DNA of 64,000 nucleotides from an uncultured Thermoanaerobaculia bacterium (GTDB lineage: Bacteria; Acidobacteriota; Thermoanaerobaculia; Thermoanaerobaculales; Sulfomarinibacteraceae). A program made the position numbers and the translations under genes. The notes beneath the pieces were generated by a model that saw nothing but the letters and a program-made list of their open reading frames with translations, did no database searches and was not told where the DNA came from. Positions 3,963 through 63,742 of this stretch are shown here, one piece after another. Each line of letters opens with the position of its first letter. Positions within the stretch are counted from its first letter, which is position 1. The stretch covers positions 73,154 through 137,153 of the forward strand of contig CAYQTL010000003.1 in the NCBI GenBank assembly GCA_964420405.1. Direction: 5' to 3'.

Positions 3963-3996
3963 CCGATCCCGATCCCGATCCCGATCCCGATCCCGA
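3963..3996. repeat. (CCGATC)n hexamer array, 5 perfect units
   Basis: Read directly: ccgatc x5 then ccgac. Intergenic between the RluD-like and NfeD-like genes. Confidence 0.95.
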
Positions 3997-5344: not shown

Positions 5345-5500
5345 GGGGCGCGATGGGTCCGCGCAGTCGCGGCACGGCTGGCTGACGTGGACCGGGTCCC
5401 GTCGCGGTCGGACCCGGGAGCAACGACGGGCGCCGCGGAAGCCGTCGACCGACGCAGCTCCCGACGACGCGGCGGATGCTCTCCTGCCGAGCCCGGCCGC

Positions 5501-5827: not shown

Positions 5828-5835
5828 CTCCGACC

Positions 5836-6123: not shown

Positions 6124-6342
6124 GGCCCACCTCCCGTCTCGGGCCGGTCGAGCCGCGGGGACCGGTCCGACGTCGCCCCGCGGGATCGCGCGCCCGGGTC
6201 CGTCAGGCCCGGGCGGCGCCGTCGTCCGGCGCGGGGCGTTGCACCGACACGCCCGATGGAGCGGGTCACGGCGTGTCGCGGACCCGAACGAACGCTTCCG
6301 GCCGGCTGTCATCTCCAATGTGTGGCCCGGCAGGGGGGTTCG

Positions 6343-8136
6343 TCAACCGCCTGCGCCGTCGTAGGCGGCCGAGATCCCCTCCACGACGCTGCGGGCGAAG
6401 CGCTCCCTCCAGGCGGCCTCGAGCAGCAGAGCGCGGTCGGCGTCGTTGGCCATGTTGCAGGCCTCCACCAGCACCGCGTGCTGGGCGGCCGTGTAGCGCA
6501 GCACGGCGGGCACGAAGCTCCGCCGGCCCCGCAGAATCCGGTCGCGCACCGGCTGGTAGGGATGGGTCTCGACGTCGTTGGCCTCGAAACGGTCGACCAG
6601 CCGCTCGGCGAGGTGGCGGGAGGACGCCTCGACCCGAGCCTTGAACGACGGACCGAGCCGCACGGTGGGATGGTTGCGGTACTCCTGGTAACGGCCGATC
6701 TGCGGATGGCGGACGGTGAACGTCGGCGGACGCATGTAGCGGGACGGAACGTACACCATCGCCCCACGTACGCTCGGATGCAGCGAGTCGGCGTGGATCG
6801 AGACGAACACCGTCTTCGACCGGGGCACGTCCTCTCCGAGCCGGTTGAGGATGATGTCGTTGGTCAGGTACCAGCGCAGGTGCACGCCGATGACGCTGTC
6901 CCGGAGATCGTAGGTCGGCCGCGTCAGGAGGTACTGGTCGCGACGGTTCTCGAGCCGGTCGCGGTCCGGGATCCGGTCGCCGAGGGTACGGTCGAGGCGG
7001 GTCATCCAGACCGTCGCCCGGGTGTGGCGCTCCAGGATCCGCTTCACGCGGCAGGTGAGGTCGTAGACGTAGGTGGCCTCCCACACCCCCGCCACCACCG
7101 ATCCCGGGTCCGCTCCGCCGTGCCCTGCGTCGAGGACGACGTGGACGCCGCCGAGGTCGGCGGCCCGCACGACCTCCAGGAAGCGGTCGAGCTCGCGCCG
7201 CTCCGCCTCCCACGCCACCCGGCGCGGATCGTCCGCCGGCAGGTGCTCCGGCAGCAGGAGCTCGACGGGGATCTTGACCGGAAAGCCGATCGGAATCGAC
7301 GTCACGTCGTGGATTCCGGACCGCCGGGCGATGGCCGCCGCGGTGGCGTTGACCTGGTCGGCCTCGAGCTGACCGGTGAACCGCACGACCACAGCCGAGT
7401 ACAGGGCCTCGCCGGCCCGCAGCCGGTAGACGGCGAACCGGCCGTCGTCGTCCCGGCCGAAGCTCAGCGGCCCGGCAGACCCCGCCGGCGACTCCTCCGC
7501 GGGTGTCGGCGGCGGCGCGGGTGCCGCGACGGGCGTCGGCGTCGCCGGCGGGCGGACCTCGCGGAACACCGGCATCAGCAGCGCCTCTGGGACGACCACC
7601 GGCCGCCCGCGCTGCGGCGCCCCGTCCGGGTGCCCGGGGTTGGCCCGCCGCAGCTCCTCCGCCGCGCCGGCCCGTCCGGCGAAGAGCCCTGCCAGCCATC
7701 CCCAGCTCTCCTCGCCGTCGCCGAAGGGGTCGAGCGGCCAGTGCCGCCACCCTTCCGGCACCCGCTCGTCCATCGGAAACAGCCGTCGTACCACACCGAG
7801 GCGCACGGTCGGCGCGAGGGCCGTCAGCGGAACCCGCACCTCGCGGTCCCGCATCGGATCCACGAGACGCGGGTTGGCGGCACGCAGGCCGGGCGCACCG
7901 TCGGCCCCCCCCGTCCAGGTCCGGGCCAGCGAGATCCAGCCCTCTCCCCCGGCGGGCCGGACGAGCAGCATCGGAGGCTCGCCGCGGCGCCATCGCAGCA
8001 GGCCGTATCCCTCGACCTCCGTCTCCAGCAGGGAAGGCCCCTCGACGGTCGCCGCCGCAGGGAGCACGACCGCGAGGACGAGCAGGGCCCAGATGACGAC
8101 GCCGTCACCGCGGCGCGGCGTGCGCCCGCTCGTCAC
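6343..8136 (-). CDS. N-acetylmuramoyl-L-alanine amidase (Amidase_3) with long N-terminal region
   Basis: VVLDAGHGGADPG, VFVSIHADS and LVEACNMAN motifs of AmiA/B/C-type amidases. Start placed at GTG 8136, giving a signal-like TSGRTPRRGDGVVIWALLVLAVVLPAAA. Start uncertain. Confidence 0.8.
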   Translation of the reverse strand: MTSGRTPRRGDGVVIWALLVLAVVLPAAATVEGPSLLETEVEGYGLLRWRRGEPPMLLVRPAGGEGWISLARTWTGGADGAPGLRAANPRLVDPMRDREVRVPLTALAPTVRLGVVRRLFPMDERVPEGWRHWPLDPFGDGEESWGWLAGLFAGRAGAAEELRRANPGHPDGAPQRGRPVVVPEALLMPVFREVRPPATPTPVAAPAPPPTPAEESPAGSAGPLSFGRDDDGRFAVYRLRAGEALYSAVVVRFTGQLEADQVNATAAAIARRSGIHDVTSIPIGFPVKIPVELLLPEHLPADDPRRVAWEAERRELDRFLEVVRAADLGGVHVVLDAGHGGADPGSVVAGVWEATYVYDLTCRVKRILERHTRATVWMTRLDRTLGDRIPDRDRLENRRDQYLLTRPTYDLRDSVIGVHLRWYLTNDIILNRLGEDVPRSKTVFVSIHADSLHPSVRGAMVYVPSRYMRPPTFTVRHPQIGRYQEYRNHPTVRLGPSFKARVEASSRHLAERLVDRFEANDVETHPYQPVRDRILRGRRSFVPAVLRYTAAQHAVLVEACNMANDADRALLLEAAWRERFARSVVEGISAAYDGAGG

Positions 8137-8194
8137 GCCGGCGTCGCCGGCCGTCGGGTCCCGTATACTCGTCGCCACATCGACGGGCGCACCG

Positions 8195-9868
8195 ATGGTA
8201 CCACGCCACACCCACCGGGCCGGAGGGCTTCCCGGGCGCCTCCTCGAGCAGCTCGACGAGCTGCTGCGGGCGGCGGCCGAGGACGAGTCAGGGCGACAGC
8301 AGTACCTGCTCCGAGCCTCGCGGCTGCTCGCCGAGCAGCTCGACGCCGACCGCGTCACGCTGCTGGTGCCCGCCGGAGCGGACACCTACCGGGTGGTGGC
8401 CGGGACGGAGGCCGAGTCGGTGGGCGACGTGCTCACCGCTGTCGACCGGTACCCCGAGCTCGAGCGCGTCCGCAGCACCGGCCTGCCGGTGCTGGTGGGT
8501 GACGTCGCCACCAGCGAGCTGTTGGCCCCGGTCCTGGCCGAGCGGCGCCGGGACGACGAGGCGAGCCTGATGGCCGCCCCGGTCCGGCTGCCCGCCGTCG
8601 CGGCCGTGCTGCGCGCGGCGTCGGGTCGCCGGTCGTTCGGGCGCGACGACCTGCGCCGGCTGATCGAGGTCGCCGCCCATCTCGAGCAGACCCTCGAGAG
8701 CGTAACCGCGCTCGAGTCCCGGCCGGGTGGGTGGGCGGTGGTCGCGAGGATGCTGGCCGACGCCGTCCTCGAGGTGGCGGTCGACGGCCGCATCACCGCC
8801 GTCCATCGCGGGCCGTCCAACCGTCTCCCCTGGCCGGCGGACATCGCGGGCTCGCTGGTCGGGCGGGCGCTGCACCATGCCGACGGCACCGGACGGCCGG
8901 TGCCGACGACCGACATCGTCACCGCGCCCGACCAGGCCGTGCTGACGCTCGCCGCCGTCCTGCCCGGGCGGGAACCGGTCCCGGTCCGGGCCATCGTCTC
9001 CCGCACCAGCGGCCTGCCGCCGCGGGTGCTGGTGGCGCTGACGACGGTGCCGGCGGCAGTGTCGGCGGTGCGCGACGCGCCCTCGGCCGAGGAGCGGGAG
9101 GCGGGCCTGCGCGCCCGCCTCGGGGAGACGCTCGCGGAGCTGGAGCGGCTCGAGCACCGCCTGTCGCAGGTGGAGACATCCCGCCACCGGTTCGTGTCGG
9201 CCTCGGCCCACGAGCTGAAGACGCCGATCACCGTCATCCAGAGCTACCTCGAGATCGTGCTCGACGACCTCGGTGAGGGCCTCGGCGAGGAGCAGCGCTC
9301 GTTCCTGACGATCGCTCACGAGAACGTGCTCCGCCTGCGCCGCCTGGTGACGGACCTGGTGGACCTGGCCGCGATGGACTCGGGCAGGATCCAGCTCCAG
9401 ATCGGGCGGGTCGAGGTCGGGCCGCTGCTGGAGAGGATCGCGGCCGAGCTGTCGCCCCTTTCCCGGCGTGCCGACATCGACCTCGCCGTCGAGATCGAGC
9501 CGCCGCCGCCGGTGGTGCGGGGATCGGAGGAGCGGATCGAGCAGATCCTCCGCGGCCTGCTCGACAACGCGCTCAAGTTCACGCCTCCCGGCGGCCTGGT
9601 GACGTTGCGCGGGCGCACCCGGGAGGACTCGGTGCTGCTCGAGGTGGCCGACACCGGGCAGGGCATCGCCGCGGAACGGCTCGACACCCTGTTCGACGAG
9701 TTCGTCCAGGCGGGGCCGTCGCTCGACCCCCGCCGCCGCGGCGCCGGGCTCGGCCTGTCGATCGCCAGGCGGGTGGCGCTCGCCCTGGGCGGCAAGATCA
9801 CCGTCGCGAGCCGCGAGGGCGAGGGCTCGACCTTCACGGTGTGGCTCCCCCGCTGGCCGGGAGAGTAG
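8195..9868 (+). CDS. GAF-containing sensor histidine kinase
   Basis: N-terminal GAF-like region, H-box FVSASAHELKTPITVI, HATPase_c boxes (LLDNALKFTPPGG, DTGQGI, GAGLGLSIARR). ATG 8195 is 25 nt after TATACT (8164-8169). Confidence 0.85.
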   Translation: MVPRHTHRAGGLPGRLLEQLDELLRAAAEDESGRQQYLLRASRLLAEQLDADRVTLLVPAGADTYRVVAGTEAESVGDVLTAVDRYPELERVRSTGLPVLVGDVATSELLAPVLAERRRDDEASLMAAPVRLPAVAAVLRAASGRRSFGRDDLRRLIEVAAHLEQTLESVTALESRPGGWAVVARMLADAVLEVAVDGRITAVHRGPSNRLPWPADIAGSLVGRALHHADGTGRPVPTTDIVTAPDQAVLTLAAVLPGREPVPVRAIVSRTSGLPPRVLVALTTVPAAVSAVRDAPSAEEREAGLRARLGETLAELERLEHRLSQVETSRHRFVSASAHELKTPITVIQSYLEIVLDDLGEGLGEEQRSFLTIAHENVLRLRRLVTDLVDLAAMDSGRIQLQIGRVEVGPLLERIAAELSPLSRRADIDLAVEIEPPPPVVRGSEERIEQILRGLLDNALKFTPPGGLVTLRGRTREDSVLLEVADTGQGIAAERLDTLFDEFVQAGPSLDPRRRGAGLGLSIARRVALALGGKITVASREGEGSTFTVWLPRWPGE

Positions 9869-10030
9869 CACCTTCGCGCCCGTACCCCCCGCTTCCCGAT
9901 CCCGACGGTGCCGCCGGCGATAGCCCCCACGAGCGGCGCCACCCACACGATCGACGACAGCGACCGGGGGCGGGTGCGGCGACGAGCCGCGGTCCCGGCG
10001 TGCGCTGCTCTCCGGCGGGACAGAGCACGC

Positions 10031-10053
10031 ATCGGGATCGGGATCGGGATCGG
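10031..10053. repeat. (GGGATC)n hexamer array, about 3.5 units
   Basis: atcgggatcgggatcgggatcgg, between convergent kinase and AI-2E genes. Confidence 0.9.
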
Positions 10054-10076: not shown

Positions 10077-11202
10077 AGACGAGCTCCCGGACGTACTTCT
10101 CGCGCGCCAGGCGCCAGAAGACCACCAGGAAGGCGGTCAGGGGGATCGCCAGGATCATGCCGAGGATGCCGGACAACGCCGTTCCCCAGAAGAAGATGGC
10201 GACGATGATCACCATCGGGTGCAGCCCCGTCCGGTCGCCCATGATCTTGGGCGTCAGCAGGTAGCCCTCGATCATCTGCACCGCCGCGAACACCGCCAGC
10301 ACCAGGGCGACCCGGAGCCAGCCGCCGCCGTCCTGGAGGAACGCCAGCGGCAGCGCCGTGCCGAGCCCGACGATGTTGCCGAGGTACGGGATGATGTTCA
10401 GGAAGCCCAGCACCAGGCCGATCACGAACCCGTACCGGAGCCCGACCACGCTGAACCCGATCGCGAACAGCAGCCCCTGCAGGAAGGCGATGATCAGCTG
10501 GCCGCGGAAGAACGCCACGATGATGGCGACGAACTCGCGCACCAGGTAGACGACGTCCTCGCGGGTGCTCTGCTTGAGAAACGGCAGGTAGTTCTCGAGC
10601 CTCTGGAAACGCGGCTCGACCAGCAGGAAGAACGCGAAGTAGACCGGAGTCACCGCCCACGCCAGCAGCGTCGCCACCGCCGACAGCACGTCCCTGCCCG
10701 CCGACAGGGCACGGGTCCCGAACTGCTGCAGCCCCTGCACCAGATTCCCCTGGCCGCCCTCCACCGCCCCCGTCAGGCTCTGCAGGATCGGGTGGCTGCG
10801 GATGAACTCGGCGACCTGCGGCGCGTGCTGCCGGACCGCCTCCACCGCCGACCGCCAGTAGCCGGGGATGCGCTCCACGAGGTCGCCCACCTGCTCGACG
10901 ATGATCGCGCCGAAGAACCAGCCGAACGCCGCCAGCGGGATCAGCACCGACAGGAACACCGCCACGATCGCCGCGACCCGGGGCAGCCGGGCGCGTTCGT
11001 GGAGCCAGTCGAAGTAGGGCTTGAAGACCAGCGCGGCCACCGCGGCGACGGCGAGCGGCAGGAACACGTTGGAGAACCGCCCCACGAACAGGCCCAGCAA
11101 CCAGAACAGCCCGCCGATGGCGAGCAGGATCACGAGAGCGGCGAGGATCGTCACCGCGGCGGCCACCGTCGCCCGCTGCCGTTCGCTGAGGTCGAGCTGC
11201 AT
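10075..11202 (-). CDS. AI-2E family transporter (PerM/UPF0118)
   Basis: 375 aa with about 8 TM helices. C-terminal FFWGTALSGILGMILAIPLTA is typical of the family. ATG 6 nt after TATCAT (11214-11209, minus strand). Confidence 0.85.
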   Translation of the reverse strand: MQLDLSERQRATVAAAVTILAALVILLAIGGLFWLLGLFVGRFSNVFLPLAVAAVAALVFKPYFDWLHERARLPRVAAIVAVFLSVLIPLAAFGWFFGAIIVEQVGDLVERIPGYWRSAVEAVRQHAPQVAEFIRSHPILQSLTGAVEGGQGNLVQGLQQFGTRALSAGRDVLSAVATLLAWAVTPVYFAFFLLVEPRFQRLENYLPFLKQSTREDVVYLVREFVAIIVAFFRGQLIIAFLQGLLFAIGFSVVGLRYGFVIGLVLGFLNIIPYLGNIVGLGTALPLAFLQDGGGWLRVALVLAVFAAVQMIEGYLLTPKIMGDRTGLHPMVIIVAIFFWGTALSGILGMILAIPLTAFLVVFWRLAREKYVRELV

Positions 11203-33736: not shown

Positions 33737-33760
33737 ATCGGGAACGGGATCGGGATCGGG
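33737..33760. repeat. (GGGATC)n-type hexamer array (atcgggaacgggatcgggatcggg)
   Basis: Read directly; intergenic. Confidence 0.85.
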
Positions 33761-33794: not shown

Positions 33795-34268
33795 TCAGGG
33801 CTCCGCGACGCGACCCTCGTGGGAACGCTTCCGCATCCAGATCTCGGTGCCGCCGCGTTCGTAGCGGACGTCGTCCATGAGGCGGTTGATCAGGAACACG
33901 CCGCGGCCGTGGAACGAGTACAGGTTGCGGCCGGTGAGCGGGCTCGGCACGCTCGAAGGGTCGAACCCGGTGCCCGGATCGCGGACCACGATCACCAGCG
34001 CCCGCTCCAGGTCGCAGGCGACCCACACCTCGACCCGCTTGGACGGGTCGCCGCCGCAGCCGTGGGTCACGGCGTTGGCCAGCGCCTCGGTGACGGCGAG
34101 CTCGATCTCGAACTCCTCGCTCCCGCCGCAGCCCGCATCGCGGACGACGTCCATGATCCGGTCGACGACGCGCGGCAGCCGCCCGACGTCCGCCGGGATG
34201 CTCTCCCGGAGCATGACGTCGAGGTCGTCGGGGTCGAGGTCGAGACGGTCGGGCACGGAGTCGTTCAC
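33795..34268 (-). CDS. RsbW/SpoIIAB-like anti-sigma serine kinase (HATPase_c)
   Basis: ELAVTEALANAVTHG, VRDPGTGFDP and GRGVFLINRLMDDV motifs. AGGAG SD. A TATACT box (34303-34298, minus) lies in the 52-nt gap upstream. Confidence 0.8.
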   Translation of the reverse strand: MNDSVPDRLDLDPDDLDVMLRESIPADVGRLPRVVDRIMDVVRDAGCGGSEEFEIELAVTEALANAVTHGCGGDPSKRVEVWVACDLERALVIVVRDPGTGFDPSSVPSPLTGRNLYSFHGRGVFLINRLMDDVRYERGGTEIWMRKRSHEGRVAEP

Positions 34269-40017: not shown

Positions 40018-40088
40018 GTCGCTGTCGCTGTCGCTGACCCTGTACGCTGCCGCTGACCCTGTCGCTGCCGCTGAACGTGACCGCTGCC
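40018..40088. repeat. Repeat module M4 (GTCGCTG/ACCCTG-type degenerate short tandem units)
   Basis: gtcgctgtcgctgtcgctgaccctgtacgctgccgctgaccctgtcgctgccgctg. Inverse versions at 52377-52417, 56760-56813 and 57685-57742; short piece at 62229-62242. Confidence 0.8.
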
Positions 40089-40117
40089 ATCGGGATCGGG
40101 ATCGGGATCGGGATGGG
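40089..40117. repeat. (GGGATC)n hexamer array, about 4.5 units
   Basis: atcgggatcgggatcgggatcgggatggg, read directly; intergenic. Confidence 0.95.
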
Positions 40118-40284
40118 AGGCCGGGGCGGCCGGAGCTGCACGGGTCGTCGTGCTGGGGTCGAACGGATGCGTGCCGGCTGGAAGCCGGCGCTACGGGGTG
40201 GCGCGCGGACGCGGGCACGGACGCGGGAGGGCCGGCACCGACATCGTTCCGCCCGGATCGGGTCCTCCGGCCTACAATCGCACC

Positions 40285-42918
40285 GTGCGGATCATCACGA
40301 CCCACCTGTCGGCCGACTTCGACGCGTTCGCGGCGGCGGTGTGCGCGGTGCGGCTGGATCCCGGCGCCCGGGTGCTCTTCCCGGGCTCGCAGGAGGCGGC
40401 GGTGCGGCGGTTCGTGACCGCGACCAACCTGCCGTATCCCGAGCTCAAGCTCCGGCAGGCGCGCCGCGAGCGGCTCGAGCACGCGCTCGTTGTCGACACC
40501 CGCAGCCCGGCCCGGCTCGGCGAGGTGTGGCAGCTGATCGAGCGTGACGGCTGCCCGATCACCCTGATCGACCACCACGTCACCGAGGAGGACGGGCTCC
40601 GGGCGCGGGAGCTGCACTCGCGCCCGGTCGGCGCCACCTGCACCATCGTGGCCCAGCTGCTCGACGAGCGCGGCCTGGTCCCGAGCCCCGAGGAGGCGTC
40701 GCTGCTGCTGATGGGGATCTACGAGGACACCGGCGCCCTGTCGTACCGGGAGACCACCCCCGAGGACATGCGGACCGCCGCCTGGCTGCTGTCGAGCGGC
40801 GGCTCGCTGACCTGGGTCCGCCGCTGGGTGCTCAAGGCCCTCGAGCCCGACCAGCTGGCGCTGCTCAACCGGCTGGTGGAGGCGACCGACCGGATCGACG
40901 TGGCCGGCGTGCCGGTGTCGCTGGCGATGGTCGAGGTGGACCGCTACCACGAGGAGGCTGCGTACGTCGTCCACCGCTGGATCGAGACCTTCGAGATCGG
41001 CGTCGGCGTGGCGATGCTGGTGCGTCCTCCCCACGTCAACCTCATCCTGCGCTCGCGGTTGCCCGGGCTGCACGCCGGCAGGGTGGCGCAGCGCTTCGGC
41101 GGCGGCGGCCATGCCACCGCGGCGTCGGCGAGGGTGTCGGACCGGATGCCGGTGGAGGTCCGCGAGGAGCTTCTCGGGGCCCTCGCGGAGGCCATGCCAC
41201 CGGCGCCACGGGCGGTCGACATCGCCACCACCACCATCTTCTCGGTCGACGCCGACGTCACCGTCAGCGACGCCAAGCAGCGGCTCAACCAGCTCCGGGT
41301 CAACGCGCTGCCCATTCGCGACCCGTCGGACGGCGAGCTCGTCGGCATGGTGACGCGGCAGCTGCTCGACCGTGCGGTGGTCCACGACCTCGGGTCCCGG
41401 CCGGTCGGCGCCGTGATGCATCCCGACCTGCCCACGGTCGCCGCCGACACCCCGCTGGAGGAGCTCAAGGAGGTGTTCCTCGAGCGCTCGCACCGGTTCG
41501 TGGTGATAGCCGACCGGGGGCGTCCGGTCGGGATCGTCACCCGGATGGACCTGTTCCGCCGGATGTTCGAGGCCTCGAGCCGCTCGGGCACGACCCTCGA
41601 CCACCGCATGGCCGGGGTCCGACCCGTCAGCCAGCCGATCCCCCGCCTGCTTCGTGAGGGCTCGGCGGGCTGGGTCCGGCACCTGCTGGAGACCGCGAAG
41701 GCGGTGGCCGACACGGTCGGCATCCATGTCTACCTGGTCGGCGGCATGGTCCGTGACCTGCTCCTCGGACGGCCCAACGAGGACGTCGACCTGGTGGTCG
41801 AGGGCAGCGGCATCGACTTCGCCCACGCCCTCGCGGCCTACACCGGCGGACGGTGCCACCCCCACGAGCCGTTTCTGACCGCTGTCGTGACCCTGCCGGA
41901 CGGCCACCGGGCGGACGTGGCATCGGCCCGGACCGAGTTCTACCGCACGCCGGCGGCCCTGCCGGAGGTGGCGACATCGCTGATCCGGCAGGACCTGTAC
42001 CGGCGGGACTTCACCGTCAACGCCCTCGCCGTCGACCTGTCCGGCGACCGGTTCGGCCAGCTGGTGGACTTCTTCGGCGGGCGCAAGGACCTCCAGCGCG
42101 GCGAGATCCGGGTCCTCCACAGCCTCAGCTTCATCGACGACCCGACCCGCGCCATCCGCGCCGTCCGCTACTCCCGCCGGCTCGGCTTCTCGATCGCGCA
42201 GGACACCCGCAACCTGATCGCCACCGCCGTCGCCGAGGGTGTTCTCGAGCGACTGTCGGGCCAGCGGCTGCGCCGGGAGCTCGACCAGCTGCTGGCCGAG
42301 CCGCACCCGACGCCGTCGATCGCCATGCTCGCCGAGCTCGACCTGCTGCGGGCGATCTGCGCGGAGCTGCGCTGGAGCGAGGCGACCCGCGAGCTGCTGC
42401 TCGAGATCGAGGGCCAGCTGGCGTGGTACACCCTCGAGCAGCTGGGGGAGCCGCCTCCCGCGTGGCTGCTGTTCCTCGGCGCCCTCGCCGCCGAAAGCGG
42501 ACCCGACGCGGGCGCAGCCCTCGCCGATCGCCTCCAGCTGACCGGGGAGCTGCACCGGAGGCTGCGCGGGCTGCGGCCCGCCGTGGCCCGCCTGCGGGCG
42601 GCGGTGGACGAGCCGCGGCGCTCCCGCCGCGCACGGCTGGTGGGTGAGGCGCCCCCGGAGGTCGTGCTGCTCGCCATGGCCGGCCTCGAGCTCGAGCCCC
42701 GCCGGCTGCTGGCCGACGCCCTCGACGCGGCCGTCCATGTCCGGGCCCCGGTTCGGGGTGCCGACCTGGTGGCGGCCGGCGTCGAGCCGGGGAGATGGAT
42801 CGGACGGGCCATCGAGGCGACCCGCGACGCCCTCGTCGACGGCGAGATCGCGGCCGAAGCGGCGCTGTCCTTCGCGATCCGGACGGCCCGCACGAGCCGC
42901 GGGGAGGCCGGCCCGTGA
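40285..42918 (+). CDS. DHH/DHHA1-CBS-tRNA nucleotidyltransferase (CCA-adding/poly(A) polymerase family) fusion protein
   Basis: DHH (TTHLSADFDAF..LIDHH), GGGGHATAA (DHHA1), two CBS-like repeats, then YLVGGMVRDLLLGRPNEDVDLVVEG and RRDFTVNAL nucleotidyltransferase motifs. GTG 6 nt after TACAAT (40273-40278). Confidence 0.85.
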   Translation: MRIITTHLSADFDAFAAAVCAVRLDPGARVLFPGSQEAAVRRFVTATNLPYPELKLRQARRERLEHALVVDTRSPARLGEVWQLIERDGCPITLIDHHVTEEDGLRARELHSRPVGATCTIVAQLLDERGLVPSPEEASLLLMGIYEDTGALSYRETTPEDMRTAAWLLSSGGSLTWVRRWVLKALEPDQLALLNRLVEATDRIDVAGVPVSLAMVEVDRYHEEAAYVVHRWIETFEIGVGVAMLVRPPHVNLILRSRLPGLHAGRVAQRFGGGGHATAASARVSDRMPVEVREELLGALAEAMPPAPRAVDIATTTIFSVDADVTVSDAKQRLNQLRVNALPIRDPSDGELVGMVTRQLLDRAVVHDLGSRPVGAVMHPDLPTVAADTPLEELKEVFLERSHRFVVIADRGRPVGIVTRMDLFRRMFEASSRSGTTLDHRMAGVRPVSQPIPRLLREGSAGWVRHLLETAKAVADTVGIHVYLVGGMVRDLLLGRPNEDVDLVVEGSGIDFAHALAAYTGGRCHPHEPFLTAVVTLPDGHRADVASARTEFYRTPAALPEVATSLIRQDLYRRDFTVNALAVDLSGDRFGQLVDFFGGRKDLQRGEIRVLHSLSFIDDPTRAIRAVRYSRRLGFSIAQDTRNLIATAVAEGVLERLSGQRLRRELDQLLAEPHPTPSIAMLAELDLLRAICAELRWSEATRELLLEIEGQLAWYTLEQLGEPPPAWLLFLGALAAESGPDAGAALADRLQLTGELHRRLRGLRPAVARLRAAVDEPRRSRRARLVGEAPPEVVLLAMAGLELEPRRLLADALDAAVHVRAPVRGADLVAAGVEPGRWIGRAIEATRDALVDGEIAAEAALSFAIRTARTSRGEAGP

Positions 42919-43568
42919 TCGCGGCGCTGCTGGCTGCCACCATCGTCTCGACGGTTCCGGGGGCGACGCCGACCGCCGCCCCTCCGCCGTCGGCTCCGGA
43001 GGTCGTGGTCGAGCGGATCGTGCAGGTCACCGGACGGACCACGCGGCTGACCCTGTTCGACAACCGGATCGCGGTGGTGTCCCGGCGTGAGGGCCGGTCG
43101 CACGTGCTGCGCCGCCGGTTGCTCACACCGGCCGAGCACCAGGGGTACCGGGTCACGCTGGCGCGCGAGATGCCCCTCGTCGTCGAGGACGAGGTCGCCG
43201 CCCCGGAGCCCGGCGACCCGACCCGCGGCGTGCTCCGTCTCGGCGGATCCGGGACCGGGCCACGGACGGTCGTCTACTCGGTGCTCGCGGTGCAGCCGCT
43301 GCCCCTGGCGCGGCTGCTGCGGGCTCTCGACGGCCTCGAGTCCGAGGTCCTCGCCACGCCGCCCGCCCAGGTCGAGCTGGCGGCCTGGCGGCCGCGGGTC
43401 GGCGACCGGCTGGAGCTGGCCGGCGGGACCCGGGGGACGATCATCCGGATCACCGACTCGGGATCGCTGGTGGTCGAGCACGACCGCACGCACATCCGCG
43501 AGGTGATCCCGCCAGGCGGATGGGTGACCGTCATCCACCGCCTGCTCGACGAGCGGTCGCCGCCATGA
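42915..43568 (+). CDS. Hypothetical exported protein
   Basis: 217 aa. N-terminal IAALLAATIVSTVPGATP signal-like segment. GTGA overlap upstream and ATGA overlap downstream argue for real translation. No recognised domain. Confidence 0.6.
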   Translation: MIAALLAATIVSTVPGATPTAAPPPSAPEVVVERIVQVTGRTTRLTLFDNRIAVVSRREGRSHVLRRRLLTPAEHQGYRVTLAREMPLVVEDEVAAPEPGDPTRGVLRLGGSGTGPRTVVYSVLAVQPLPLARLLRALDGLESEVLATPPAQVELAAWRPRVGDRLELAGGTRGTIIRITDSGSLVVEHDRTHIREVIPPGGWVTVIHRLLDERSPP

Positions 43569-44125
43569 GGGTGACCGGCGGCGAGCTGGGCTCCCGCCGC
43601 CTGCGCGGACCGTCGCGCGGGATGCCCCTGCGCCCGACCCCGGATGCGGTCCGCGAGCGGCTGTTCGCGGTGCTGGGCGACCGCGTCGCAGGCTGCCGGA
43701 TGCTGGACCTGTACGCCGGAACCGGCGCTGTCGGCATCGAGGCCCTGTCCCGCGGCGCCGCCGCGGTGACGTTCGTGGAGGCCCACCGGGCAGCGACGCG
43801 GTTGATCGCCGCCAACCTGGCGGACCTCGGCGTCGGGGGCGACCGCACGCGGATCCTGACCGGGCCCGCCCGCCGCGCCGTCGCGCGGCTCGCCCGACGC
43901 GGCGAGCCCTTCGACCTCGCGTGGGCCGACCCGCCGTTCGCGATCTGGGCCGACGGCGCCGCCGCGCTCGCCGAGGCGTTCGTGGCCGGCGTGCTCGGCG
44001 AGACCGCCGTGGGCTGCCTCGAGTGCCCCCCGGAGGCCGACCCCCGTGCGCTGCCGGCCCCGCTGGAGGTCGTCCGCGACCTGGCGGGCGGCGCGAGCCG
44101 CGTGCTCATCGTGCGGCGGGGGTGA
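43565..44125 (+). CDS. rsmD: 16S rRNA (guanine966-N2)-methyltransferase RsmD
   Basis: LRPTPDAVRERLF, LDLYAGTGAVGIEALSRGA and ADPPF motifs. Confidence 0.88.
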   Translation: MRVTGGELGSRRLRGPSRGMPLRPTPDAVRERLFAVLGDRVAGCRMLDLYAGTGAVGIEALSRGAAAVTFVEAHRAATRLIAANLADLGVGGDRTRILTGPARRAVARLARRGEPFDLAWADPPFAIWADGAAALAEAFVAGVLGETAVGCLECPPEADPRALPAPLEVVRDLAGGASRVLIVRRG

Positions 44126-44139
44126 GCCGGGAGCCCGCA

Positions 44140-44181
44140 CGATCCCGCCGTCCCGATCCCGTTCCCGATCCCGTTTCCGAT
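44140..44181. repeat. Degenerate (CCCGAT)n-type hexamer array
   Basis: cgatcccgccgtcccgatcccgttcccgatcccgtttccgat. Inverted relative to the array at 44349-44387. Confidence 0.85.
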
Positions 44182-44348: not shown

Positions 44349-44387
44349 ATCGGGACGGATCGGGATCGGAGATCCGGGATCGGGACC
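44349..44387. repeat. Degenerate (GGGATC)n-type hexamer array
   Basis: atcgggacggatcgggatcggagatccgggatcgggacc. Inverted partner of 44140-44181. Confidence 0.85.
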
Positions 44388-44402
44388 CGAGGCGGGCCGC
44401 CG

Positions 44403-45704
44403 CTACAGGTGCGATACCCGGTGCGCGGCGAGGATCTCCCGCTGGATGGCGATGTTGTCGCGGTGGCCCGTGAGGCGGGCGGTGACGCGGCCGCGGACAG
44501 GGTAGCCGAGCAGGTACAGGTCGCCGATCACGTCGAGCACCTTGTGGCGCACGAACTCGTCGGGGAACCGCAGCTCGGTGTTGAGGACGTTGTCCTCGCC
44601 GACGAGGATGAAGTTGTCGAGCCGCCCCCCCGAGCCGAGGCCGAGCTCGTTGATCATCTTGAGGTCGCGCATGAAGCCGAAGGTCCGGGCCGGCGCCACC
44701 TCGCGCATGTAGTCCTCGAAGCTCGACAGCCGGAACTCGAAGTGCTGCTCGCCCACCGGCGGTGGGTAGCGCAGCTGGTACGACACCTCGAACCCGTCAC
44801 ACGGCTCGACGACCAGGCTCTTGTCGCGGCCGCCGCCGACCTCGTAGCGGCGGTCGACCACCAGCTCCCGGCGCGGGCGGTCCTGGTCGACGACGCCGAT
44901 CGACGCCAGGTGGCGGCAGAACTCGAGAGCCGAGCCGTCGAGCACAGGGATCTCGCCGTGGACCTTGACCAGGATGTTCGTGATGCCGGCCGCGTGCAGC
45001 GCCGACAGGAGGTGCTCGACGGTGCGGATGCTCTCCCCGCCCGCGGTGAGGGTGGTCGCGTAGTCCGTGTCGGCCACCGCGTCGACGTGGGCCGGGATCA
45101 CGGTCCCCCTGGGAACGGTGACGAAATGGATCCCGCTGTCCGGCGGCAGCGGCTGGATCGCCATCCCGGTCCGCCCCCCGGAGTGGAGGCCGAGGCCGTA
45201 CAGGACGCTGGAGGCGCGGATCGTGCGCTGCGGCAGATCGGAGGTGCGCAGCACGGACAGCTCGGGCGCCGCCCTGAGGTCGCGGTCGACGTCCACCCGT
45301 TCCCGGATCCGCTCGAGGACTCCGCCGCCGGCCCGGGGCCGCTTCGCCGCGAGGGCCGTCCGGACAGCGTCGACCGTCTGGTCGTAGGACAGGGGCTTCT
45401 CGAGGTAGTCGTACGCCCCCATCTTGATCGAGGTGACGGCGGTGGCCGAGGTCCCGTGGCCGGACATCATGATGACCGTCGCGTCGGGATCCAGCTCGAG
45501 GATCGCCTGCAGCGCCTCGAGCCCGTCCCGGTCGGGCAGCCAGATGTCCAGGAACACCACGTCCGGCCGGTCCCGGCGGTACAGCTCGAGAGCCTCCTCG
45601 CCGCTGGCGGTCGTCAGCGTCCGGTAGCCCTCGTCCTCGAGGATGTCCGACATCGCCGTCAGGATGCCGGCCTCGTCGTCGACGATCAGGACGAGCTCGC
45701 TCAC
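44403..45704 (-). CDS. lpxC: Response-regulator receiver domain fused to UDP-3-O-acyl-GlcNAc deacetylase (REC-LpxC)
   Basis: REC: LIVDDE, VVFLDIWLPDRDG, YDYLEKP. LpxC: GLGLHSGG, TVEHLLSAL, FVRHKVLDVIGDLYLLG, TGHRDN. One uninterrupted frame. Start at GTG 45704 or ORF start 45758. Confidence 0.85.
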   Translation of the reverse strand: MSELVLIVDDEAGILTAMSDILEDEGYRTLTTASGEEALELYRRDRPDVVFLDIWLPDRDGLEALQAILELDPDATVIMMSGHGTSATAVTSIKMGAYDYLEKPLSYDQTVDAVRTALAAKRPRAGGGVLERIRERVDVDRDLRAAPELSVLRTSDLPQRTIRASSVLYGLGLHSGGRTGMAIQPLPPDSGIHFVTVPRGTVIPAHVDAVADTDYATTLTAGGESIRTVEHLLSALHAAGITNILVKVHGEIPVLDGSALEFCRHLASIGVVDQDRPRRELVVDRRYEVGGGRDKSLVVEPCDGFEVSYQLRYPPPVGEQHFEFRLSSFEDYMREVAPARTFGFMRDLKMINELGLGSGGRLDNFILVGEDNVLNTELRFPDEFVRHKVLDVIGDLYLLGYPVRGRVTARLTGHRDNIAIQREILAAHRVSHL

Positions 45705-45808
45705 CGTGCCAGTGTGGTTCGGACCACCGGTCCGGTCAAGGCGTCTGGCGCGCCGCACACGTCCGCTACAATGCGCGGCATTCGGCCGACGAGGGGAGGA
45801 TGTCGGAC

Positions 45809-48061
45809 ATGGGCTCGAGCTCGGGGGAGCGGCGCAACCTGGCGGTGCTGACCAGCGGCGGCGACGCTCCCGGCATGAACCCGGCGGTCCGGGCGGTGGT
45901 GCGCAGCGCGCTGGACTCCGGTGTCGACGTATGGGCGGTCCGCGAGGGCTTCCGGGGGCTGGTCCGGGGCGGCGAGCACTTCGTCCCCATGAGCTGGGAG
46001 TCGGTCGGCGGAGTCCTGCACCGCGGCGGAACCGTCATCGGCACCGCCCGCGCGCCCGAGTTCCGTGAGCGCGACGGCCGCCAACGCGCGGTCGCCCACC
46101 TGGTGGCGCACGACATCTCGCGCCTGATCGTGATCGGCGGGGACGGCTCGCTGGTGGCGGCGGACCTGCTCCACCGGGAGTGGTCGGAGCTGCTGGGCGA
46201 GCTGGTGGCGCACGGCGAAATCCCGCAGGAGGACGCCGGGCGCCATCCCACCCTCGCCATCGCCGGCCTCGTCGGCTCGATCGACAACGACATGATCGGC
46301 ACCGACATGACGATCGGCGCCGACACGGCCCTGCACCGCATCACGGAGGCGGTGGACGCCATCTCCAGCACCGCCTCGAGCCACCAGCGCACCTTCGTGG
46401 TGGAGGTCATGGGACGCAACTGCGGCTACCTCGCACTGATGTCCGCTCTCGCCACCGGGGCCGACTGGGCGCTGGTCCCGGAGCGGCCGCCGTCCCGCGA
46501 CGACTGGCCCGAGCGGATGGCGGCGCGGCTGCGCGCCGGCCGGGAGGTCGGACGGCGCGACTCGATCGTGATCGTCGCCGAGGGTGCCCGCGACCGCCAC
46601 GGGAAGCCGATCACGTCCACCGTCGTCAAGGAGCACCTCGAGCGGCTGCTCGAGGAGGAGGTCCGGCTCACGATCCTGGGACACGTCCAGCGCGGCGGCG
46701 CGCCGTCGGCGTTCGACCGCTACATGTCCACCCTGCTCGGCCACGCCGCGGTCCGCGAGGTGCTCGAGGCGCGACCCGACGACGCACCACGGCTGATCGG
46801 CGTGCGCAACAACCGCATCACCCGGCTGCCGCTGGCCGAGTGCGTCCAGGCGACCCGGACCGCCGCCGAGGCGATCGCCTCGGGGGACTACGACCGCGCC
46901 CTCGAGATGCGCGGCGGCAGCTTCCGCGAGAACCTCGCGACCTTCCGGACCCTGGGCCGCGCGCTGCCCCATCCGCCGCAGCCGGACCGGCGACGGCTGC
47001 GACTGGCGGTCCTGACCGCGGGAGGCCCCGCCCCGGGCATGAACACCGCCGCGCGGGTCGCCGTCCGGCTGGGGCTGGACGGCGGCCATGTGATGCTCGG
47101 CGTGCGCAACGGCTTCGAGGGGCTCGCGGCCGGCGAGATCGAGGAGCTCGGCTGGATGAGCGTCCGCGGCTGGGCGACCGCCGGCGGCTCGGAGCTCGGC
47201 ACCAACCGGCGGGTCCCCGACGGCAAGGACCTGTACGCCATCGCGCGCACCATCGAGGAGCACGCCGTCGACGGCATCCTGGTGATCGGCGGCTGGGCCG
47301 CCTACACCGCCGCCCATCGCCTGCGCTCGCGGCGCGACGCCTACCCGGCGTTCGACCTGCCGATCGTCTGCCTGCCGGCGACCATCAACAACAACCTGCC
47401 GGGCTCGGAGATCTCCATCGGCGCCGACACGGCGCTGAACAGCATCGTCCACGCGGTGGACAAGATCAAGCAGTCGGCGGTGGCGTCCCGGCGCTGCTTC
47501 GTGGTCGAGGTGATGGGCCGCTACTGCGGCTTCCTGGCCCTGATGAGCGGCCTCGCCACCGGCGCCGAGCGCGTCTACCTGCACGAGGAGGGGGTCGCGC
47601 TGGCCGACCTGCAGCGGGACATCGACCACCTCGTCACCGGCTTTCGGCACGGCAAGCGGCTCGGCCTGATGATCCGCAACGAGAACGCCAACCCGTGCTA
47701 CTCGACGTCGTTCATGGTGACCCTGTTCGAGCAGGAGAGCGGCGACCTCTTCGAGGCCCGTCAGGCGATCCTCGGCCATCTCCAGCAGGGCGGCAGCCCG
47801 AGCCCGTTCGACCGCATCCAGGCGACCCGACTCGCCCGCCGCTGCCTCGAGCACCTCGCCGAGCAGGTAGGCGGGGGCACCTCCGGCGCCTGGGCCATCG
47901 GCCTCACCCAGGGCCGGGTCGAGATGCTCGACCTGGAGGACCTGCCGCGGCTGGTCGACGCCCCCCACCAGCGTCCCAAGACCCAGTGGTGGATGCAGCT
48001 GCGCGAGGTCGCGCGGCTCCTCGCCCAGCCCGGCCCCGGTCTTCCCCGCGACCCGGGCTAG
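45809..48061 (+). CDS. Tandem-domain (eukaryote-type) 6-phosphofructokinase
   Basis: Two PFK halves in one 750-aa frame: N-half GGDAPGMN/IGGDGS/GSIDNDM/MGRNCGY, C-half GGPAPGMN/IGGWAA/ATINNNL/MGRYCGF. GGGGAGG 9 nt before ATG 45809 (an alternative ATG at 45800 overlaps the SD). TACAAT at 45767-45772. Confidence 0.85.
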   Translation: MGSSSGERRNLAVLTSGGDAPGMNPAVRAVVRSALDSGVDVWAVREGFRGLVRGGEHFVPMSWESVGGVLHRGGTVIGTARAPEFRERDGRQRAVAHLVAHDISRLIVIGGDGSLVAADLLHREWSELLGELVAHGEIPQEDAGRHPTLAIAGLVGSIDNDMIGTDMTIGADTALHRITEAVDAISSTASSHQRTFVVEVMGRNCGYLALMSALATGADWALVPERPPSRDDWPERMAARLRAGREVGRRDSIVIVAEGARDRHGKPITSTVVKEHLERLLEEEVRLTILGHVQRGGAPSAFDRYMSTLLGHAAVREVLEARPDDAPRLIGVRNNRITRLPLAECVQATRTAAEAIASGDYDRALEMRGGSFRENLATFRTLGRALPHPPQPDRRRLRLAVLTAGGPAPGMNTAARVAVRLGLDGGHVMLGVRNGFEGLAAGEIEELGWMSVRGWATAGGSELGTNRRVPDGKDLYAIARTIEEHAVDGILVIGGWAAYTAAHRLRSRRDAYPAFDLPIVCLPATINNNLPGSEISIGADTALNSIVHAVDKIKQSAVASRRCFVVEVMGRYCGFLALMSGLATGAERVYLHEEGVALADLQRDIDHLVTGFRHGKRLGLMIRNENANPCYSTSFMVTLFEQESGDLFEARQAILGHLQQGGSPSPFDRIQATRLARRCLEHLAEQVGGGTSGAWAIGLTQGRVEMLDLEDLPRLVDAPHQRPKTQWWMQLREVARLLAQPGPGLPRDPG

Positions 48062-48074
48062 GTTCGGGCCGGCG

Positions 48075-48096
48075 TCCCGATCCCGATCCCGATCAC
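48075..48096. repeat. (CCCGAT)n hexamer array, 3 units
   Basis: tcccgatcccgatcccgatcac, 14 nt after the PFK stop. Confidence 0.9.
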
Positions 48097-48947: not shown

Positions 48948-48996
48948 CTCCGATCCCGCTCCCGATCCCGATCCCGATCCCGATCCCGATCCCGAC
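48948..48996. repeat. (CCCGAT)n hexamer array, about 7-8 units (longest in window)
   Basis: ctccgatcccgctcccgatcccgatcccgatcccgatcccgatcccgac, read directly; intergenic. Confidence 0.95.
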
Positions 48997-52228: not shown

Positions 52229-52268
52229 AACCGCCCCCCCCCGCACCCCCCCTCCCGATCCCGCTCCC

Positions 52269-59128: not shown

Positions 59129-59755
59129 TCAGTCCCAGGTCCGCGTGCCGCCGGCAGGGTCGTCCGCCCGGGCGCGCCGGAGCGCCGGGCCGTCGTCGAC
59201 CAGCGGCAGCGGGCCCTCGGCACTCCCCTCGAGGCTCGGACGATGCACGGCCTGGAGGATCTGGTACATCTGCCGGTGGAAGCTCCGGTCGGCCCGGAGC
59301 AGCTCGGTGGTGATCTCCAGGAAGCGGCGCTCGGTCATCCGGTCGGGCTCGCTGGCCAGCGCCACCGACACCACGTCGCTCCCGGCAAGGTCGAGCGGGC
59401 CGCCCGGGCGCTGGGCCGACGGCGCCAGCAGCCAGGTCGCGACGGCGACCAGCACCACCGCGGCGGCCTGCAGGGCCCATCGCCAGACGGGCGGCCGCGG
59501 TCGGGACGCGGCCGCCTTCCCACGGTCCGGCAGGGTGGCGGCGGCGGCGATCCGGCTCCACAGCTCGGACGGAGGAGCACCCTCCGCGTCGCCGCCGCGG
59601 AGCTCTCCGAGCGCCACGTCGAGCCGCCGGCCGGCACGGTAGAACCGCTGCAGCGCCGGCGATTCGAGCAGCTGGTCGACGACCGCCAGCGTCTCCTCCC
59701 GGCCGAGCTCGCCGTCGAGCAGGGCCGAGACCTGGATCTCGGGGATGTGGGTCAT
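59129..59755 (-). CDS. Membrane-spanning anti-sigma factor
   Basis: N-terminal anti-sigma-like helix (IQVSALLDGELGREE), central TM WRWALQAAAVVLVAVATWLL. ATGA overlap with the sigma-factor stop. Confidence 0.75.
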   Translation of the reverse strand: MTHIPEIQVSALLDGELGREETLAVVDQLLESPALQRFYRAGRRLDVALGELRGGDAEGAPPSELWSRIAAAATLPDRGKAAASRPRPPVWRWALQAAAVVLVAVATWLLAPSAQRPGGPLDLAGSDVVSVALASEPDRMTERRFLEITTELLRADRSFHRQMYQILQAVHRPSLEGSAEGPLPLVDDGPALRRARADDPAGGTRTWD

Positions 59756-60276
59756 GGGCGCGCCTCCGCTGCGAGCGCGTCGATCACCCGCCGACGCGCC
59801 CGGTAGACGTTGATCTTCACCTTCGACAGCGACCAGCCGGTACGCGACGCCACGTCGCGGTACGCCATCCGGTCGAGCACCGCGAGCTCGAACGCCTGAC
59901 GGTGCTCCACCGACAATGTCTCGAGCACGTCGCCGAGCCGCTCGACCAGCGCCCGCAGACGCGCGCGCCCGTCGGCCGCCTCGCCGTCGGCCGCCTCCTC
60001 GGGCATCTCGGCGGCCACCAACGGCGACACCGCCGACCGACGGTAGTGGTTGCGCACCAGGTTGTGGGCGACGGTGAACAGGTAGCTCCGCACCGACTCG
60101 ATGCCGTCGCCGTCGGAGCGCGTCCGGATCGCGCGCACGAAGGTCTCCTGGAGCAGCTCCTCGGCGTCCTCCACCGACCCGAGCCGGCTTCGCAGGAACG
60201 CCATGACCTCCGCGCCGTGGGTCCGATAGGCCTCGTGCCAGAACGCGGTCCCGTCAGTCATGGCGATGCTCATCAC
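59752..60276 (-). CDS. ECF-type RNA polymerase sigma factor
   Basis: Region 2 (EDAEELLQETFVRA..YLFTVAHNLVRNHYRR) and region 4 (AFELAVLDRMAYRDVASRTGWSLSKVKINVYRARRR). Exact start (GTG 60276 / ATG 60273 / ATG 60261) unresolved. Confidence 0.88.
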   Translation of the reverse strand: MMSIAMTDGTAFWHEAYRTHGAEVMAFLRSRLGSVEDAEELLQETFVRAIRTRSDGDGIESVRSYLFTVAHNLVRNHYRRSAVSPLVAAEMPEEAADGEAADGRARLRALVERLGDVLETLSVEHRQAFELAVLDRMAYRDVASRTGWSLSKVKINVYRARRRVIDALAAEARP

Positions 60277-62254: not shown

Positions 62255-62283
62255 ATCGGGATCGGAATCGGGATCGGAATCGG
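62255..62283. repeat. (GGGATC/GGAATC)n hexamer array
   Basis: atcgggatcggaatcgggatcggaatcgg, in the divergent spacer between the DUF4097-like and FKBP genes. Confidence 0.9.
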
Positions 62284-63184: not shown

Positions 63185-63574
63185 ATGGCCGACCTTGACG
63201 ACGTCCTGGTGGTGGAGGACAACCCGCAGAACCTCGAGCTGGTGACCTACCTGCTCGAAGAGGCCGGGATCCGCGTCCGTTCGGCGGGGGACGCGGGCAC
63301 GACCCATCTCGTCCTCGCCGCCGGCCTGCCCGATGCGGTCCTGATGGACATGCAGCTCCCGGGAACCGACGGCCTCGGGTTGGTGGCCCGGCTGCGGGCC
63401 GACCCACGGACCGCCCACCTGCCCATCATCGCGCTCACCGCCCACGCCATGCGCGGCGACCGCGAGCGCTTCCTCGCGGGCGGCTGCGACGGCTACCTCG
63501 CCAAGCCGATCGACACCGCCACCTTCGTCGACGACGTCCGCCGGCTCGTCGCCGAGGTGCGCCGCCGCCGCTGA
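63185..63574 (+). CDS. Single-domain response regulator (CheY-like)
   Basis: VLVVEDNPQN, AVLMDMQLPGTDG, IIALTAHAM and GYLAKPID receiver motifs. 129 aa. Confidence 0.88.
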   Translation: MADLDDVLVVEDNPQNLELVTYLLEEAGIRVRSAGDAGTTHLVLAAGLPDAVLMDMQLPGTDGLGLVARLRADPRTAHLPIIALTAHAMRGDRERFLAGGCDGYLAKPIDTATFVDDVRRLVAEVRRRR

Positions 63575-63601: not shown

Positions 63602-63624
63602 CCCGTTCCGATCCCGATCCCGAG
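63602..63624. repeat. (CCCGAT)n hexamer array
   Basis: cccgttccgatcccgatcccgag. Inverted relative to 63710-63742. Confidence 0.9.
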
Positions 63625-63709
63625 GGGGACGATGTGATCGGCGACGGCGAACGGGCCGGTCAGCACTGTCCGACTCGAACCGCACCACCGGTGCGCATTC
63701 CTGCGCGGC

Positions 63710-63742
63710 ATCGGGATCGGGATCGGGATCGGGATCGGATCG
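63710..63742. repeat. (GGGATC)n hexamer array, about 5 units
   Basis: atcgggatcgggatcgggatcgggatcggatcg, read directly. Confidence 0.95.

Follow-up and report, generated by a model that had tools for sequence, protein, structure and literature searches.

Within a 64,000-nucleotide stretch of DNA from an uncultured Thermoanaerobaculia bacterium of the Acidobacteriota phylum (contig CAYQTL010000003.1, positions 73,154 to 137,153; hereafter, the window), one gene on the minus strand encodes a CheY-like receiver domain (REC) followed by LpxC, the UDP-3-O-acyl-GlcNAc deacetylase that catalyzes the committed, flux-controlling step of lipid A synthesis and is a major antibiotic target. The open reading frame (ORF) found mechanically occupies positions 44403..45758, starts with GTG, and comprises 451 amino acids (aa) without a stop or frame break; its third-position GC content is 0.96, as expected of a true coding frame in a window of 73.5% GC. 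Homologs are 428-435 aa long and begin with MNELVLIVDDE, and because this N-terminus aligns with codon 19 of the 451-aa ORF, translation probably begins at the GTG at 45704, which would yield a coding sequence at 44403..45704 (minus strand, stop codon at 44403-44405) and a protein of 433 aa. Residue numbers given below refer to the 451-aa ORF. An earlier reading of the nucleotide sequence alone (hereafter, the original prediction) had claimed that both domains are encoded in a single uninterrupted frame, and this claim holds, all the motifs it quoted being present in the translation of the minus-strand ORF; the strand and the downstream start are additions of the present analysis.

Receiver and LpxC domains of the fusion protein

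The receiver (residues 23-132; 45363..45692, minus strand) matches Pfam PF00072 (Response_reg) with 103.5 bits against a cutoff of 30.2 (E 9.4e-30), over positions 1-110 of the 111-position profile. Its top NCBIfam match is NtrX (E 1.8e-32); in the PDB, the receivers of Brucella NtrX (4d6x) and Aquifex NtrC4 (1zit) matched it best. Non-fused genomic matches were mostly NtrX genes of Rickettsiales and other alphaproteobacteria, with the NtrX receivers of Rickettsiales sharing 43-48% identity with the window receiver. By these matches, the receiver is of the NtrX/NtrC subtype.

Alignment to solved structures placed the receiver site residues at D27, D28, D71, S99, Y118, and K121. The predicted phospho-acceptor, D71 (codon 45546..45548, minus strand, in the motif VVFLDIWLP; D53 in the 433-aa protein), aligns with the acceptor aspartate of the solved NtrX and NtrC4 receivers. 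In an alignment of 36 close homologs (A1), D27, D28, D71, S99, and K121 are invariant and Y118 is nearly so; D71 is invariant in a second alignment (A2) as well. The same chemistry extends to distant relatives: among 67 fused proteins, reaching down to ~30% identity, the acceptor aspartate is found in 65, the lysine in 66, serine or threonine in all 67, and tyrosine or phenylalanine in 65, and each residue of the phosphorylation site is kept in 63-67 of the 67 across all the architectures described below.

The LpxC domain (residues 177-443; 44430..45230, minus strand) matches Pfam PF03331 over nearly the whole profile (277.6 bits, E 1.4e-82, positions 1-267 of 268), exceeds the cutoff of the NCBIfam equivalog model TIGR00325 lpxC (229 bits vs. 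187.25), and matches Pseudomonas aeruginosa LpxC at E 1.9e-52 (phmmer). Alignment with the P. aeruginosa enzyme pairs TVEHLL with TVEHLL (E248-H249, codons 45012..45017), HKVLDVIGD with HKILDAIGD (H405-K406-V-L-D409-V-I-G-D413, codons 44520..44546), and TGHRDN with SGHALN (H432, codon 44463..44465), all on the minus strand and all kept in 67 of the 67 fused proteins. We take E248 and H249 to be the counterparts of the catalytic Glu78 and the zinc ligand His79 of Escherichia coli LpxC, H405, K406, D409, and D413 those of His238, Lys239, Asp242, and Asp246, H432 that of the catalytic His265, and T359 that of T191; in the E. coli enzyme the zinc ligands are H79, H238, and D242, and the catalytic residues E78, H265, T191, K239, and D246. 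All eight residues of the window protein are invariant in the 36 close homologs, and each of the zinc and catalytic residues is kept in 66-67 of the 67 fused proteins. We infer from the sequence that the LpxC domain is catalytically competent. The ~27 C-terminal residues of E. coli LpxC, which lie past the aligned region, are absent from the fused LpxC; the FtsH degron of the E. coli enzyme falls within this segment.

The original prediction of a complete CheY-like receiver with its phospho-acceptor aspartate, and of a complete LpxC, is thus borne out, in the first case by a profile match lacking a single position and by an aspartate that is present on alignment to solved receivers, invariant in the close homologs, and nearly so in distant ones, and in the second by the near-full Pfam profile, the TIGR00325 score, and the intact zinc and catalytic residues. 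Because the site residues of both halves persist in 63-67 of the 67 fused proteins despite divergence to ~30% identity, the receiver and LpxC are both under purifying selection for their chemistry.

Linker and structural models

The two domains are joined by a linker of ~44 residues (residues 133-176; 45231..45362, minus strand), close to the ~50 first estimated. Its length and sequence vary, with a partly conserved PPPELP.L...D.PQRTI just N-terminal of LpxC in alignment A1, and its predicted local distance difference test score (pLDDT) was below 50 in two AlphaFold models, which points to a disordered segment. Pfam detected only PF00072 and PF03331 in the window protein; neither an AAA+ module (Sigma54_activat, AAA_lid) nor a helix-turn-helix (HTH) domain of the HTH_8 family was matched at E<=0.01.

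The modeled C-terminal domain superposes on solved LpxC structures with template modeling (TM) scores of 0.75-0.85 normalized to the target (Foldseek), the P. aeruginosa and Aquifex aeolicus enzymes being matched at E down to 2.5e-27, and the Foldseek search of the AlphaFold model returned no PDB entry spanning both domains. Residues 361-397 scored poorly in the first AlphaFold model and not in the second, in which the deeper alignment gave a confidently modeled LpxC domain; the low confidence in this segment was an artifact of the shallow alignment.

Distribution, architectures, and phylogeny of the fused proteins

In a search of 5.8 billion clustered proteins, the best 120 matches (69-92% identity to the query) all carried both Pfam domains in one protein and derived from independent assemblies (NCBI, JGI, ENA, and Logan). 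With each GTDB species represented by a single genome, a scan identified 23 full-length and 2 contig-truncated fused genes in 25 species-level genomes; sequences carrying the fusion include the 5.12-Mb chromosome OZ243123.1 and the 3.48-Mb contig CAVSQV010000003.1. The names of the homologs point to a member of the class Thermoanaerobaculia as the most likely source of the window as well. The carriers are labeled Thermoanaerobaculia, Thermoanaerobaculales, 'Holophagae', 'Candidatus Multivoradales', or unclassified Acidobacteriota or bacterial metagenome-assembled genomes (MAGs), and the databases annotate the fused proteins as plain LpxC or as NtrX. Since the same architecture recurs in independent assemblies (120 of the 120 best matches and 23 full-length loci) and the frame is uninterrupted, we reject an assembly or frameshift artifact joining two genes as having practically no probability; a hidden stop or frameshift in the linker, which the original prediction had wished to see checked, is ruled out by a fusion found in well over 100 such assemblies. 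In one MAG (L020, 10463-11274), the fused gene appears as two tblastn segments overlapping at 10936-10942, probably owing to an assembly frameshift.

An exhaustive architecture search of 1.84 billion cluster representatives resolved three forms. The long form (~650-740 aa) consists of REC, a sigma54-type AAA+ domain, an AAA lid, in some cases HTH_8, and LpxC; the middle form (~490-505 aa), one example of which comes from Candidatus Entotheonellia, consists of REC, HTH_8, and LpxC; and the short form (~410-460 aa), to which the window protein belongs, has only REC, the linker, and LpxC. Pfam identified HTH_8 in the relatives P0131, P0142, and P0145, and in the long forms this Fis-type HTH sits immediately before LpxC. 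Long forms are plentiful. Among the best 120 long-form matches (clusters at 90% identity), AAA+ and LpxC were found in 120 and the receiver in nearly all; their sources are named Deltaproteobacteria, Desulfobacterota, or Thermodesulfobacteriota, and the JGI name for these proteins is NtrX. Their AAA+ domain keeps Walker A (GESGTGKE), has a degenerate Walker B, and lacks the GAFTGA loop. Four proteins (P0152, P0162, P0163, and P0166) consist of AAA+ and LpxC without a receiver; they could be incomplete gene calls or represent an additional architecture.

A neighbor-joining tree of 123 LpxC domains, 65 of them stand-alone, placed all 49 fused sequences in one clade (bootstrap 89/100). Also in this clade are 6 AAA+-LpxC calls truncated at the N-terminus and 3 seemingly stand-alone proteins, two of which come from contigs of ~900 bp; the other 62 of the 65 stand-alone sequences fall outside it. 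The third (P0175, 292 aa, on an 89-kb contig) is apparently a genuine stand-alone LpxC nested in the fused clade and could be a product of fission. Short forms nest several times among the long forms, which suggests that AAA+ and HTH were lost repeatedly, with the caveat that the internal branches concerned are short. Since the window protein shares ~50% identity with the long forms in the receiver and likewise ~50% in LpxC, the two domains were inherited together. On these comparisons, the window protein is the reduced end of a lineage that began with a whole NtrX-type regulator fused to LpxC.

Genomic context and candidate kinases

In five of six long-form contexts, two of the five being near-identical, the fused gene lies directly downstream, on the same strand, of a kinase gene encoding NtrY_N-HAMP-PAS-HisKA-HATPase_c (for example, the NtrY at L088 5757-7991), and in one context the ntrY stop codon and the long-form start codon overlap. 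Because the long form follows an ntrY-type kinase so regularly, the ancestral arrangement was an ntrY-ntrX::lpxC operon, and the short form is now an orphan response regulator. A His_Phos_1 gene follows the long form in four of the six contexts (L087 10806-11489, L089 7806-8489, L090 7340-7987, and L091 7204-7905; two of these contexts are near-identical). This gene may belong to the cluster as a third component or, given the CobA/CobO/BtuR-family gene next to it in L087 and L089, may be a cobalamin gene with no connection to the cluster.

Among the short-form contexts examined, only L018 has a kinase nearby, a 926-aa HAMP-PAS-HisKA-HATPase_c protein (4868-7648, minus strand) whose gene diverges from the fusion gene and lies 1.4 kb upstream; the domain order is that of the NtrY C-terminal part, with no Pfam match to NtrY_N. 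The ORFs directly upstream of the fusion gene in L018, L084, and L085 have no Pfam match and are not homologous to one another (n=3). Protease genes stand near two fused genes, Lon 1.3 kb from the short-form gene of L085 (12649-15273) and a Lon-ClpX-ClpP cluster 3.5 kb from the long-form gene of L086 (13761-18229); this proximity may be due to chance.

In the window itself, no histidine kinase is adjacent, as first observed: at least 34 kb separate the fusion gene from the closest ORFs for full kinases (HisKA + HATPase_c), two orphans on the plus strand located at 2207-2875 and within 7640-9868. As the second of these ORFs overlaps another good ORF, its true start is probably later. An NtrY query matched only two distant ORFs of the window, over generic kinase cores. 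Further regulatory genes of the window encode a stand-alone CheY-like regulator (63185-63571, plus strand) that follows a tandem-FKBP gene, an RsbW-type HATPase_c_2 protein (33795-34268, minus strand), and an ECF-type sigma factor (59752-60276, minus strand). Apart from the fusion, no lipid A gene was found in the 64-kb window, and tblastn with the LpxC domain identified no second lpxC either there or in 553 kb of related loci.

The neighbors of the fusion gene in the window are housekeeping genes. The gene for RsmD (43520-44125, plus strand) converges on it, and beyond that lies a gene for a 922-aa protein of the DHH-CBS-poly(A) polymerase/CCA type (40150-42918, plus strand), in which DHH/DHHA1 and two CBS domains are found together with a poly(A) polymerase/CCA-adding head and its RNA-binding domain. 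On the other side, a tandem phosphofructokinase (PFK) gene diverges from it (45800-48061, plus strand; 753 aa with two PF00365 stretches, E 4.5e-190), the tandem duplication resembling the layout of eukaryotic PFK-1. PFK is conserved as the divergent neighbor in L081, the closest relative with context data, and a PFK of 746-750 aa is found near the fusion gene in both L081 and L083; except for PFK in these closest relatives, no neighbor is shared among the four annotated short-form contexts and the window. The divergent intergenic region between the fusion and PFK genes (45705..45808, ~100 nt) contains no sigma-70-like promoter match, and a GGAGG at 45795-45799 is better spaced to the ATG at 45809 than to the first ATG of the PFK ORF at 45800. 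Scans for promoters, terminators, and hairpins around the fusion gene gave nothing useful in DNA of this GC content.

The hexamer GGGATC forms short tandem arrays at many gene ends and intergenic positions of the window (3963-3994, 10028-10053, 33740-33759, 40086-40117, 44153-44178, 44356-44389, 48077-48096, 48950-48993, 52249-52268, 62258-62283, and 63608-63738), and GGGATCGGGATCGG has 44 matches in the window with at most two mismatches, against 3.4 expected. Two of the arrays lie in the convergent gap between the RsmD and REC-LpxC genes.

Relationship to known systems

The window protein is a response regulator with an enzymatic output, which is a known kind of protein; its LpxC output and the NtrX ancestry are, as far as the searchable literature shows, so far undescribed. 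In full-text searches of open-access papers and preprints, neither REC-LpxC nor NtrX-LpxC proteins were found described, and neither a 2025 review (PMC12444477) nor a 2026 review of LpxC control (PMC13333357) mentions such a fusion.

In receiver sequence, the nearest known proteins are the NtrX/NtrC regulators (Brucella NtrX, 4d6x and 5m7n; Aquifex NtrC4, 1zit). The long relatives share with them REC, AAA+, the AAA lid, the Fis-type HTH, and the position downstream of ntrY; NtrX, which is reported to lack the GAFTGA loop, resembles the long forms in this respect too. The window protein, in contrast, has no AAA+, HTH, or adjacent ntrY, carries an enzyme in place of the DNA-binding output, and, with 113 bits, falls short of the 600 bits that the NCBIfam NtrX model requires. 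With the stand-alone LpxC of E. coli, P. aeruginosa, and A. aeolicus it shares the full-length catalytic domain, the zinc and catalytic residues, and the fold, whereas these enzymes lack its N-terminal receiver and linker, and the fused domains form a separate clade.

CheB has the same layout, a flexible linker connecting its N-terminal receiver to a C-terminal hydrolase, and its unphosphorylated receiver blocks the active site. Its catalytic domain is unrelated to LpxC, its receiver belongs to a different subfamily, and no methylesterase domain was found in the window protein; we regard CheB as the best working analogy for the mechanism. Another natural LpxC fusion is the bifunctional LpxC-FabZ (NCBIfam NF009667, PRK13188), represented by P0207 (459 aa) and P0208 (466 aa), in which LpxC is followed by ~180 C-terminal residues; there the partner is a C-terminal metabolic enzyme, whereas in the window protein it is an N-terminal signaling domain.

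In two alphaproteobacteria, the same signaling family is tied to the same enzyme. Deletion of ntrYX in Rhodobacter sphaeroides raised lpxC mRNA 8.8-fold and lipopolysaccharide (LPS) ~2-fold, with no NtrX site upstream of lpxC in this species (PMC7240162), and NtrYX is described as inhibiting lpxC transcription in both R. sphaeroides and Caulobacter crescentus (PMC12444477). That control is transcriptional, belongs to a large regulon, and is indirect in R. sphaeroides, whereas in the window protein the two partners form one polypeptide.

Proposed mechanism and alternative explanations

We propose, with moderate confidence, that the window protein is a response regulator with LpxC as its output, derived from an NtrX::LpxC ancestor and controlled by phosphorylation through an NtrY-like kinase encoded elsewhere. 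A whole NtrX-type regulator (REC, degenerate sigma-54-type AAA+, and Fis-type HTH) would have been fused to LpxC, with AAA+ and HTH lost later. A non-adjacent histidine kinase, most plausibly NtrY-like, would phosphorylate Asp71 (Asp53 of the 433-aa protein), the resulting changes at the alpha4-beta5-alpha5 face of the receiver would alter its dimerization or its docking on the tethered LpxC, and LpxC output would change through the rate of catalysis, by analogy with CheB, or through the stability or localization of the protein, by analogy with RssB and CpdR. The comparisons above establish the fusion and its conservation, the intactness of the phosphorylation and catalytic sites, the NtrX ancestry, and the ntrY neighbors of the long forms. 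Phosphorylation, its effect on LpxC activity or availability, the direction of this effect, and the identity of the kinase are steps that we infer, and the restraint of lpxC by NtrYX in alphaproteobacteria may serve as a weak hint to the direction. The idea of a phosphorylation-controlled LpxC, already part of the original prediction, is strengthened by purifying selection on both sites, by the NtrX origin of the receiver, and by the ancestral-looking forms in ntrY operons, and the repression of lpxC by NtrYX in two alphaproteobacteria adds an independent genetic link. The broader claim that NtrY/NtrX signaling directly gates the committed step of LPS synthesis, fused to LpxC, across several uncultured diderm phyla is one that we hold tentatively, as possible and hardly as probable.

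Several points weigh against this proposal. No histidine kinase adjoins the fusion gene in the window, and, the divergent kinase of L018 apart, none does so in the other short-form contexts examined, the four annotated ones included. The predicted TM score (pTM) of the AlphaFold models fell from 0.82 to 0.72 when the alignment grew from 36 to 92 sequences, so that the inter-domain orientation is not robust, and because of this instability between alignments we claim no fixed docking of the receiver on LpxC. The long, variable linker likewise argues against rigid allosteric coupling, and at the same time a variable and probably disordered linker would fit a tethered-domain mechanism of the CheB type. 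The alphaproteobacterial NtrYX effect, being transcriptional and indirect in R. sphaeroides, offers a thematic parallel only. Finally, because the fused sequences form a clade that extends across several phyla, the fusion is either very old or was spread by horizontal transfer, and the gene could therefore be an accessory copy beside an ordinary lpxC.

The last point leads to the alternative that the fused gene is a horizontally acquired second LpxC for particular conditions, with a stand-alone lpxC performing the housekeeping role. The clustering of fused LpxC domains from Acidobacteriota, Desulfobacterota-like MAGs, and Entotheonellia apart from 62 of the 65 stand-alone ones speaks for it, as do the lack of a conserved neighborhood and of adjacent lipid A genes. 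We nevertheless consider it rather doubtful. The searched 64-kb window and 553 kb of related loci yielded no second LpxC, the domain scores above the TIGR00325 equivalog cutoff, and its conservation of 70-92% across the whole class is typical of an essential enzyme. In other bacteria, stand-alone lpxC is often unlinked to other lpx genes as well.

It is also conceivable, though unlikely, that receiver phosphorylation sets the amount of LpxC, through its exposure to a protease or adaptor or through its localization, as in RssB or CpdR, which would build on the classical control of LpxC by proteolysis. Elsewhere, LpxC is proteolyzed through FtsH/LapB in enterobacteria, and a role for Lon has been proposed in some alphaproteobacteria (PMC12444477, PMC13333357). 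The lack of the ~27 C-terminal residues of the E. coli enzyme means that another handle for control would be needed, the flexible linker would suit a tethered degron or adaptor model, and protease genes lie near the fused genes of L085 and L086. Such proximity is seen in only 2 of 11 contexts, where it could be chance, and no degron was identified in the sequence; this explanation differs from phosphorylation-dependent control as proposed above in the last step only.

Two further readings are considerably less probable. The receiver could be a leftover of NtrX acting as a constitutive dimerization or scaffold module without phosphorylation input, as suggested by short forms without an adjacent partner kinase and by the loss of AAA+ and HTH, which already indicates reductive evolution; receivers that work independently of phosphorylation are known in other families. 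The full phosphorylation set kept in 63-67 of the 67 fused proteins would be unexpected without phosphorylation chemistry, which makes this reading improbable. About as improbable, lastly, is a reverse flow of information, in which LpxC senses its substrate, the receiver serves as phosphate sink or signaling partner, and the protein thereby informs an NtrY-type pathway of the flux of lipid A precursors, the long forms being trigger enzymes that also regulate transcription: although the Fis-type HTH that separates AAA+ from LpxC in the long forms could bind DNA, and bifunctional enzyme-regulators such as PutA exist, the window protein has no DNA-binding or other output, leaving LpxC as the sole possible one, and the conservation of all catalytic residues points to an enzyme and not to a mere binding module.

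Implications for the control of lipid A synthesis

What is understood of LpxC regulation comes mainly from enterobacteria, where proteolysis involves FtsH/LapB/YejM, and from a small number of other proteobacteria; to our knowledge, almost nothing is known about how LPS synthesis is balanced in Acidobacteriota, Desulfobacterota, and other environmental diderms. The widespread natural joining of LpxC to an NtrX-type regulator, or to its receiver alone, is a clue of the Rosetta-stone kind that LpxC itself is a target of two-component signaling, and it independently supports the link between NtrYX and the envelope seen genetically in alphaproteobacteria. The fusion also offers a simple experimental system, comprising one protein, one aspartate, and one assay. 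If the proposed control by phosphorylation is correct, it would add a further mode of post-translational LpxC control to FtsH/LapB proteolysis and the other mechanisms reviewed so far, the long-form polypeptide would combine a DNA-binding regulator and an enzyme in one, and the alphaproteobacterial NtrYX-lpxC link would reflect an old and general functional coupling. The finding thus bears on how LPS synthesis is controlled beyond the model proteobacteria.

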